A DNA stretch of 25,397 bases from Candidatus Bipolaricaulia bacterium. Its GTDB lineage: Bacteria; Bipolaricaulota; Bipolaricaulia; RBG-16-55-9. The stretch lies in NCBI GenBank assembly GCA_042219045.1, contig JBDGQO010000035.1, forward strand, positions 1,650-27,046, in the 5' to 3' direction. Below, one piece after another: positions 2-1,123 of this stretch. The notes beneath the pieces were generated by a model. It was not told the DNA's origin and did no database searches. It saw only the letters and a program-made list of their open reading frames with translations. Position 1 is the stretch's first letter, and every line of letters starts with the position of its first letter. The position numbers were made by a program, and so were the translations under genes.

Positions 2-802
2 GTAGATCTCGCGAGACTTCAGCCCCACCGTCCGATCCTCGGTCATGTCGACGACGCCCACGCCGTGTCGGCCGGCTCGCTCGTTGAGGGAGGCGATCAG
101 ATCGATCAAGGGCATACCCACGCCGTCGAGGAAGATGGGGAGACCTTGCTCAAAGCTCAGTTCGATCGTCTCCGGGTCATCAGGCGCTTCTTCCGGAGGC
201 ACGCACATCTCGTAGACATCGCGCGGCGGCTCATGGAAGGGGTCTTCGAGGACGCCGCACTCGATGCTGCGCCCCCAGAGGTTGGCGTCAACGGAGTACG
301 TCGACTCGGGCGGAACGGGGATGCCGTGCTCGCGAGCGTACGCCACCTCGCTCTCCCGATCGAGGTTCCACTGACGGATGGGCGCAATGATCGCGAGATG
401 CGGCGCCAACGCGCCGAGTGAGACCTCGAAACGGACTTGGTCGTTCCCCTTGCCCGTGCAGCCGTGAGCGACCGCGTCGGCGCCGATCTCGTTGGCGACC
501 GCGACGGCCTGCTCGGCCATCAGGGGTCGAGCCAGCGCCGTCGCGAGCGGATAGGCGTCCTGGTAAAGCCCGTTCGCCCGAATGGCCCGCGTCAGGTACT
601 CGTCCGCGAACGCCTCGCGGGCGTCGATCACGTGGGCGTCGACGGCGCCTAGCTCAAGGGCCTTCTCGCGGGCCGCCTCGACGCCGCCTTGGCCCAGATC
701 GAGCGTCAGCGTCGTGACCTGCGCGTCGTAGTGATCCTGCAGCCAGGGCACCATGCAGGAGGTGTCCAGACCGCCGGAATAGAGCAACAACACGTTCTCC
801 AT
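2..802 (-). CDS. argG: Argininosuccinate synthase (5' part; runs off the left edge of the window)
   Basis: Not in the ORF track (no stop in window). Manual translation from ATG at 802 gives MENVLLLYSGGLDTSCMVPWLQDHY...AHGCTGKGNDQVRFE, containing both ArgG signatures (YSGGLDTS; GCTGKGNDQVRF). Confidence 0.97.
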   Translation of the reverse strand, partial: MENVLLLYSGGLDTSCMVPWLQDHYDAQVTTLTLDLGQGGVEAAREKALELGAVDAHVIDAREAFADEYLTRAIRANGLYQDAYPLATALARPLMAEQAVAVANEIGADAVAHGCTGKGNDQVRFEVSLGALAPHLAIIAPIRQWNLDRESEVAYAREHGIPVPPESTYSVDANLWGRSIECGVLEDPFHEPPRDVYEMCVPPEEAPDDPETIELSFEQGLPIFLDGVGMPLIDLIASLNERAGRHGVGVVDMTEDRTVGLKSREIY

Positions 803-899
803 AAGGATCTCTTTCTGTTCGGATAGCCGACAACCGTAACGCTCAAAACAGGACCGATGAGCGCTACGACGGACTCAACGGACGTCGGTCAGGGCTTGG

Positions 900-920
900 A
901 AAATCGCGCGGTCCGCGCGA
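900..920 (-). terminator. GC-rich hairpin plus short U-tract just after the Arg leader stop codon (candidate attenuator terminator or pause)
   Basis: Minus strand TCGCGCGG-A-CCGCGCGA-TTTT (perfect 8-bp inverted repeat at 904-920), starting 4 nt after the TAA. The U-tract is short, so it may be a pause rather than a full intrinsic terminator. Confidence 0.55.
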
Positions 921-924
921 GGGG

Positions 925-1062
925 TTATCGTCGAGCTCGTTTGGAAGGTCGTCGGAAGCGTTTGGCGGGCGTGGCGTCCAGATGGGACAGGCCGGCGGAC
1001 CGAACAGGACTGGCTAAACCGGTCTGCAGAACGGACTGCGGTTCGTCGCTCCAATGGGTCAT
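925..1062 (-). CDS. Putative arginine-sensing leader peptide (45 aa)
   Basis: MTHWSDEPQSVLQTGLASPVRSAGLSHLDATPAKRFRRPSKRARR*. GGAGG SD (1070-1074) lies 7 nt before the ATG. Six Arg in the last 11 codons, five of them CGA. Sits between a promoter and argG. Confidence 0.8.
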   Translation of the reverse strand: MTHWSDEPQSVLQTGLASPVRSAGLSHLDATPAKRFRRPSKRARR

Positions 1063-1093
1063 GTTACCGCCTCCGACTTTGAGGGTGAGCGTC

Positions 1094-1123
1094 ACTATAG
1101 AGGAAGTCGGGGAGACTTGTCAA
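1094..1123 (-). promoter_or_regulatory. sigma70-type promoter for leader-argG
   Basis: TTGACA (1123-1118) - 18 bp - TATAGT (1099-1094). Confidence 0.75.

Follow-up and report, generated by a model that had tools for sequence, protein, structure and literature searches.

Classical leader attenuators are represented by trpL, hisL, leuL, thrL, pheL and ilvL/ivbL of Proteobacteria, and leaders with Cys codons are known from mycobacteria. Arginine is the standard example of a biosynthetic pathway that is run by a protein repressor and not by attenuation. Here we describe a short open reading frame (ORF) with a cluster of arginine (Arg) codons upstream of argG, the gene for argininosuccinate synthase, in a Candidatus Bipolaricaulia bacterium. 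The window, meaning the whole stretch of DNA analysed, covers 25,397 nucleotides (nt), positions 1,650 to 27,046 of contig JBDGQO010000035.1. We propose, with a probability of roughly 0.6, that the ORF at positions 1062-925 of the window is a regulatory leader-peptide gene of argG-argH that would gauge charged transfer RNA for arginine (tRNA-Arg).

Several published systems are close enough to serve as reference. Leader attenuators of trp, leu and ilv genes are described for Actinobacteria in a 2005 survey, which detected no RNA element in front of the arg operons there and gives T-boxes as the only ones for arginine elsewhere (PMC1262725). Sensing through Arg codons is described for the Salmonella speF leader orf34, where pausing of the ribosome on two consecutive Arg codons at low arginine chooses between alternative messenger RNA (mRNA) structures and where translation also interferes with Rho (PMC6386406). 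The fungal arginine attenuator peptide, encoded by the upstream ORF of arg-2/CPA1, is conserved in sequence; in the exit tunnel it detects free arginine and arrests the ribosome on the stop codon, after which scanning is repressed or decay of the mRNA sets in (PMC11550727). Candidate upstream ORFs with cognate codons are reported for cysS and aroF, and in the cysS motif uORFC-8-2 the regulatory codons lie in the first stem (PMC8632094). We found no description of an Arg-codon leader for bacterial arginine biosynthesis in the open full-text literature, Rfam, Pfam or NCBIfam. This agrees with an earlier reading of the window made from its letters alone (the original prediction), which knew of no textbook Arg-codon attenuator for a bacterial arg operon. 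Sensing of Arg codons by an upstream ORF is, however, published for speF.

The elements needed for such a leader follow one another on the minus strand, to which all leader coordinates refer unless stated:

1094..1123, minus strand: sigma-70-type promoter, TTGACA at 1123-1118, an 18-nt spacer and TATAGT at 1099-1094
1070..1074, minus strand: Shine-Dalgarno sequence GGAGG, 7 nt 5' of the leader ATG (1062-1060)
925..1062, minus strand: leader ORF of 45 codons plus TAA (927-925), with the tail KRFRRPSKRARR
947..960, minus strand: Arg cluster 1, CGC at 960-958, CGA at 954-952 and CGA at 951-949
928..939, minus strand: Arg cluster 2, CGA at 939-937, 933-931 and 930-928, abutting the stop codon
900..920, minus strand: hairpin T1, TCGCGCG at 920-914, loop GAC, CGCGCGA at 910-904 and TTTT at 903-900, with 7 G-C-rich pairs
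2..802, minus strand: argG, ATG at 802-800, extending past the window edge (Pfam Arginosuc_synth, 4.5e-63)

This arrangement is the one that had been predicted, and it stands on re-reading. The TTGACA-18-TATAGT promoter is the sole site that a promoter scan finds between 600 and 1400, with 11 of 12 matches against 0.1 expected from shuffles. The GGAGG, the 45-codon ORF and the six Arg codons are in place, as is the GC hairpin with its four U (920-900), from whose T run the argG ATG is separated by 98 nt where about 100 had been given. The leader peptide reads MTHWSD...AKRFRRPSKRARR, and Arg accounts for 6 of the final 12 codons, one CGC and five CGA. The GGAGG is kept in an alignment with the leader of a sister genus of the same family (genome G003). 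The combination of strong promoter, Shine-Dalgarno sequence, ATG and ORF of 5-60 codons occurs at only 8 sites in the genome, the argG leader being one of them. An argH-like frame follows argG on the contig, beyond a masked stretch. The leader peptides match no Pfam or NCBIfam family. Rfam, T-box included, gives no match to the leader within 600-1400 at E up to 10, consistent with the predicted lack of T-box motifs; the one small RNA match in this interval lies on the opposite strand and is at chance level.

We examined argG upstream regions in the same order, which comprises 35 genomes, 9 of them with argG, for ATG-initiated ORFs of 8-70 codons having at least three Arg among the last 8 residues and located within 350 nt upstream of argG, with 500 dinucleotide shuffles per locus as control. 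Such an ORF is present in 7 of 8 loci, compared with 0/8 for the reverse complement and 2.8-8.2 % of the shuffles. The ninth locus, that of G003, is cut in one contig and was recovered from another (L013); it too has an Arg-tailed leader, homologous to the one in the window, 42 codons long and ending in KRPTRTRLKRRA. The total for the order is therefore 8 of 9 argG loci, in 7 of 8 genera, so that the short ORFs with 3' Arg clusters expected in relatives by the original prediction are indeed found. Every positive locus has its own near-consensus promoter in the same relative place. Apart from the Arg tail the peptides are unlike one another, and the Arg codons vary between CGA, CGC, CGG, CGT and AGA. 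Since only the Arg residues are kept while their codons vary, selection acts on codon meaning. No Rfam match was found in 17 loci from relatives at E up to 0.1. Two loci of family f4 have the leader ATG very close to the − 10 box (15 nt after it in L006, 9 nt in L009) and share TATAGTGTGCGC; the mRNA from which their Arg leaders are translated is probably leaderless or almost so.

To look beyond the order, the class was sampled through 149 searched genomes that are at least 80 % complete. A match to argG is patchy (51/149), and an Arg-containing leader precedes it at 45 of 48 usable loci, a count that pools groups judged by different motifs. In families f8 and f9, 28 of 29 usable loci carry a leader that ends R-x-R-T-x-G and keeps a constant distance to argG, families f10 and f7 have ...SPLRR(G/E)... 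in 9 of 9, and the single locus of family f6 is without a leader. As unrelated controls we took argG relatives of at most 58 % identity from scans of genomes and metagenome contigs, among the matches listed. In this set 15 of 80 unrelated argG loci satisfy the order's ORF definition, 11 of which belong to one Coriobacteriia leader family, leaving 4/69; for metagenome contigs, again among the matches listed, the count is 10 of 74, with 2 of the Coriobacteriia family, leaving 8/72.

These background rates bear on the simplest alternative, in which there is no regulator and the promoter drives argG-argH with a long structured 5' untranslated region, the ORF being a by-product of high G+C content or a small basic protein. 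Arg-rich frames are common in a genome of 64 % G+C, the 4/69 and 8/72 unrelated loci among the matches listed fit the definition by chance, and an RRRTVGP frame upstream of argF resembles a chance match as well. This explanation has to face leaders with their own start signals at 8/9 loci of the order and 45/48 of the class, against 3-8 % of shuffles and 0/8 on the reverse strand, a codon bias towards CGA that speaks against chance, and a peptide that has neither a protein family nor conservation beyond its Arg tail. We regard it as highly improbable; on the sequence comparison, the recurrence of argG leaders is not chance.

The Coriobacteriia leaders form an observation of their own. In Collinsella and other Coriobacteriaceae, a conserved 24-codon leader ending RRQRAISRRR (CGA CGA CGA, stop) lies about 286-211 nt before argG (loci L070, from Collinsella aerofaciens, L073, L074, L076, L077, L079, L082, L085, L087 and L088, also L163 and L186). 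At locus L101, three CGA codons pair with a TCGTCGTC complement, which is followed by TTTTCC. Having such a look-alike leader in cultured Collinsella would make the idea of an argG leader testable at the bench. In family f10, six loci (L008, L014, L015, L017, L018 and L021) contain a second short frame, a mini-ORF of 8 codons (MKLGRR..) with its own GAGGTGAT, at a distance of 50-85 nt from the aligned ArgG start. The argG Shine-Dalgarno sequence overlaps the Arg codons of this mini-ORF, and a TTG resembling the argG start overlaps its TGA, which suggests translational coupling with argG.

The emphasis that had been placed on CGA holds up. CGA is a minor codon here, making up 12.0 % of the Arg codons in 586 long ORFs of the genome, and at this usage the binomial probability of at least five CGA among six Arg codons is ~1e-4. 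It is also favoured in the leader tail of G003, in 4 of 5 Arg codons. A tRNA scan of all contigs found 46 tRNAs, with tRNA-Arg anticodons GCG, CCG, UCG, CCU and UCU; since tRNA-Arg(UCG) is present, CGA has a dedicated reader. Elf et al. in 2003 reportedly proposed that attenuator leaders use codons whose tRNAs lose their charge first, and the preference for CGA with its own minor tRNA makes this idea testable. The same scan shows tRNA-Arg(GCG) and no tRNA-Arg(ACG) among the 46 tRNAs of this 89 % complete genome, which, unless the assembly has a gap there, would be unusual among bacteria.

Whether the genome encodes the repressor ArgR had been raised as a check. The ArgR domains PF01316 and PF02863 were not found in this genome at its 89 % completeness, and PF01316 was found in 0/149 class genomes and 0/71 of the good-quality ones, while control genomes do match.

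The leaders of sister families indicate how an Arg-codon cluster may be connected to RNA structure. In families f8 and f9, the two to four Arg codons extend into segment 1; the loop holds the stop codon, after which come segment 2, a pyrimidine-rich spacer, segments 3 and 4 and, in low-GC members, a T-rich tail. Median duplex energies are -22.9 (1:2), -22.0 (2:3) and -10.8 kcal/mol (3:4), and the 2:3 pairing, the antiterminator, beats 95 % of shuffles in 21 of 28 loci. In folds of L125 and L130, a ribosome footprint on the Arg codons abolishes the terminator (0 pairs), and one on the stop codon leaves it with 7 pairs. The f8/f9 leaders have the four-segment layout of the trp type. RNAalifold on a MAFFT alignment of 28 f8/f9 leaders returned 5 pairs only, as indels shift the arms, and per-sequence duplex tests were used instead.

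Other relatives arrange the same parts differently. In f10 the whole hairpin lies inside the ORF, with AGG AGA in its 5' arm and, in two loci, a long T run after it. Four segments can be drawn in G003: first a small hairpin, whose loop contains the last CGA CGA and whose 3' arm contains the stop codon, then a CU-rich spacer and finally a 10-pair hairpin with TTTCC, whose 5' arm can pair with the stop-codon region. The G003 terminator disappears when the CGT six codons ahead of the stop occupies the A site, but persists for the other Arg codons. The layouts thus vary around one sensor, from the trp type of f8/f9 through the terminator inside the ORF of f10 to the hairpin abutting the stop codon in the window, and the series would be useful for studying the evolution of attenuators.

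In the window, hairpin T1 is present in every unconstrained fold (alone -11.3 kcal/mol) and is a candidate terminator or pause signal. G003 has a hairpin of other sequence at the same place with the same TTTCCAGCC-like tail (TTT(T)CCA-GCC); that the place and the tail are kept while the sequence differs argues for a conserved function. Aligned with G003, the leader ORF of the window is about 8 codons longer, has three additional CGA and brings its stop codon to 4 nt from T1. Three further features lie between T1 and argG:

827..835, minus strand: GGTTGTCGG, the distal complement of Arg cluster 1
836..867, minus strand: hairpin H2, 10 pairs, 867-858 with 845-836
844..890, minus strand: T2, a second candidate terminator, GACCGA 890-885 pairing with TCGGTC 857-852, then CTGTTTTG at 851-844 (-13.9 kcal/mol)

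From this material we propose, with a probability of about 0.6 to 0.7, a regulatory leader in which ribosome stalling on Arg codons, mainly CGA, would raise argG-argH expression. The leader would be transcribed from the promoter at 1123-1094 and translated from GGAGG-N7-ATG. At low arginine the ribosome would stall on the Arg codons, mainly CGA, and the leader RNA would take a form that lets expression continue into argG. With ample arginine the ribosome would reach the TAA and leave, and downstream structures would then restrain most of the expression; these would be T1 (920-904) with its TTTT and the helices of the Arg clusters with 881-868 and 835-827. The stalling, the direction of the response and the output step are what we infer. 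Our favoured guess for the output step, at somewhat less than even odds, is that a ribosome kept on the terminal CGA CGA would relieve termination or pausing at T1.

A number of results weigh against this proposal. The run of only four T at T1 falls below the criterion of the terminator scan (at least 5 T in 8), which lists 0 terminator-like sites. Taken as a whole, the 301-nt leader is not more stably folded than its shuffles (z -1.04). An antiterminator would need upstream partners for the arms of T1, and the strongest of these, at -13.2 and -14.2 kcal/mol, do not surpass those in shuffled sequence. When folds are constrained by a ribosome, T1 holds at codons -9, -8, -4 and -2; the only positions at which it opens are -1, the stop codon and, by way of an unrelated refold, -11. 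Were the ribosome to stall on any of the four Arg codons further upstream, T1 would remain free. Since T1 opens at -1 and also at the stop codon, a ribosome that has completed the ORF hides it no less effectively than a starved one does, and occlusion would work only if release at the TAA outpaces the escape of RNA polymerase from the T run; such a faster release is possible. Among the relatives, L005 of the same family offers no more than a 15-codon ORF containing two Arg codons, L010 has no such ORF, and the guessed terminators of L004 and L007 form in no ribosome state. The other genome of the same genus (n=1) has no argG match, which leaves no close relative for covariation, and related genomes are not independent samples.

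The interpretation given in the original prediction, that stalling on CGA at low charged tRNA-Arg switches argG on, is thus sustained in one part and weakened in another. The leaders of relatives, the failure to find ArgR and the CGA bias favour the sensor. The simple picture of the hairpin with U4 as a regulated terminator is not supported, as there is no antiterminator beyond chance and T1 is lost, besides the unrelated refold, only at the last Arg codon and the stop. T2 fares poorly in the same role. Among the constrained folds, only those with the ribosome at codon -4 yield its base stem (p 0.64-0.94); in the others the probability does not exceed 0.26 and is 0.08-0.17 for a ribosome at the stop codon. 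For free RNA it is 0.07.

The Arg codons have other possible partners. Cluster 2 can pair with 881-868 at -15.3 kcal/mol, a value reached by 5 % of shuffles. Within cluster 1, CCGACGACC (955-947) pairs with GGTTGTCGG (835-827) at -16.3 kcal/mol, against -7.8 +/- 1.8 in shuffles, 0/300 of which are as good, and a second test gives z -4.0. This distal helix is part of the minimum-energy fold, lies 13 nt 5' of the argG Shine-Dalgarno region and extends to CAGA 817-814 near it. It is the best-supported predicted structural feature involving Arg codons, and its GGTTGTCGG strand may resemble segment 3 of the f8/f9 attenuators.

One explanation that keeps the sensor gives this helix the leading part. 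A ribosome stalled on CGA CGA would free 835-827 and thereby change access to the argG start or mRNA stability; translational attenuation of this general sort is exemplified by the erm leaders. Besides the two tests and the fold just given, the terminal Arg codons of G003 have a 9-bp complement about 50 nt before argG (z -2.1), no kinetic coupling is required, and a like mechanism is published for speF orf34 (PMC6386406). The helix in the window nevertheless ends short of the Shine-Dalgarno sequence, the strand freed in G003 could equally pair beside the Shine-Dalgarno sequence, which leaves the direction of the effect ambiguous, and the other five order loci are without a significant distal partner. 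As a general rule, complementarity between the leader ORF and the argG initiation region is above shuffles in none of 8 loci. We consider a long-range output of this kind unlikely.

A second explanation with the same sensor invokes Rho, which would load on C-rich RNA after the ribosome departs, ending transcription ahead of argG or within it, and would be blocked by a ribosome stalled near the 3' end of the ORF, as in tnaC. A Rho gene is present (579.9 bits), and over 996-919, the 3' half of the ORF with both Arg clusters, the C/G ratio reaches its maximum of 2.19 (C 45 %, G 21 %). Many relatives have a pyrimidine-rich tract after the first hairpin. No antiterminator is required. The C-rich stretch, however, lies inside the translated ORF, and the 122-nt spacer that follows has C 32 % and G 27 % and is structured by T1 and H2. 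A Rho-dependent output appears very unlikely to us.

The sensor itself could also be different, with the nascent peptide sensing free arginine or a pathway intermediate in the ribosome tunnel and codon starvation playing no part. The Arg-rich tail adjoins the stop codon, and f10 and f8/f9 do keep non-Arg residues (SPLRRGLTSL, RTAG). Those residues are encoded by hairpin arms, however, so RNA pairing explains their conservation. In the order, the leaders share Arg residues only, and a conserved peptide sequence as in the arrest peptides TnaC, SpeFL and the fungal one was not found. In addition, arrest at high arginine next to T1 would switch a biosynthetic operon on at the wrong time. Of the explanations considered, we find this one the least credible.

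Taking sensor and structures together, we can sketch a wider hypothesis. The whole class, in which ArgR was not found, would control argG by Arg-codon leaders, and the lineage of the window would have rebuilt the device: the ORF became about 8 codons longer and touches the hairpin, the antiterminator is gone, a CGA run acts as sensor through tRNA-Arg(UCG), and a stalled ribosome either occludes the hairpin or frees 835-827. In its full form this is doubtful. If true, it would mean single-hairpin or long-range attenuation for an amino acid that textbooks exclude from attenuation.

The surroundings of the leader and the other arginine genes complete the description. The gene upstream of the leader encodes a LolA-like protein. 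A 157-aa ORF on the plus strand (857-1330) lies opposite the leader and the LolA-like gene's end; it matches no Pfam family and is probably a high-GC artefact. The genome also encodes argF, as well as a lysX-like gene with argC. No Arg-codon leader precedes argF; the RRRTVGP frame upstream of it (contig C105) was judged a chance match, having no Shine-Dalgarno sequence or ATG and preceding the likely promoter. The upstream region of the lysX-like/argC operon is interrupted by a contig end. On contig C80, argC adjoins the lysX-like ATP-grasp gene, and ArgJ was not found in the genome. These neighbours, together with the missing ArgJ and the patchy argG, hint at a carrier-protein (LysW-type) route or at partial pathways. 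Outside the window, a trpE-like gene on contig C29 is directly preceded, at about 104958-105080 (plus strand), by a 17-codon ORF (MDIVTKGGRLWSGSQRR) that contains one Trp codon, together with a strong promoter and GAGGTGAT. This is another of the 8 genome-wide sites with promoter, Shine-Dalgarno sequence and short ORF, and its ORF is possibly a Trp leader.

If our proposal for the argG leader is true, arginine becomes one more amino acid that is sensed by stalled ribosomes, and this in a class whose searched genomes yielded no ArgR, and the leader explains how the arginine pathway is regulated in these small-genome, mostly uncultured bacteria. Control by ArgR and ARG boxes performs the same task, the feedback control of arg genes, but does so through a protein repressor, which was not found in the 149 class genomes. 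The fungal arginine attenuator peptide likewise comes from an upstream ORF before an arginine-pathway gene; unlike it, the argG leader keeps only its Arg codons, and the proposed logic is codon starvation in a bacterium. Salmonella orf34 controls ornithine decarboxylase and thus polyamine synthesis, has sensitivity to RNase G as its output and shares no sequence relation with the argG leader. The cysS motif uORFC-8-2 is also a cognate-codon leader found by comparative genomics outside the textbook set, for another amino acid and other genes, and none of these candidates concerns argG.

The closest comparison is with the classical attenuators. Like them, the argG leader is a short ORF with a cluster of codons for the end product near its end, followed by a hairpin and a T run before the first gene, and in the f8/f9 relatives the full 1:2, 2:3, 3:4 layout of the trp operon is present. 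It differs from them in its amino acid, arginine, in having no detected antiterminator and in an ORF that ends within 4 nt of the hairpin. Since an antiterminator was sought in the window and none beyond chance was found, the argG leader is not a full member of the trp/his type. It does have a leader ORF with its own start signals and a cluster of codons for the end-product amino acid of its operon, as leaders of that type do, and by function it groups with the ribosome-mediated leaders.

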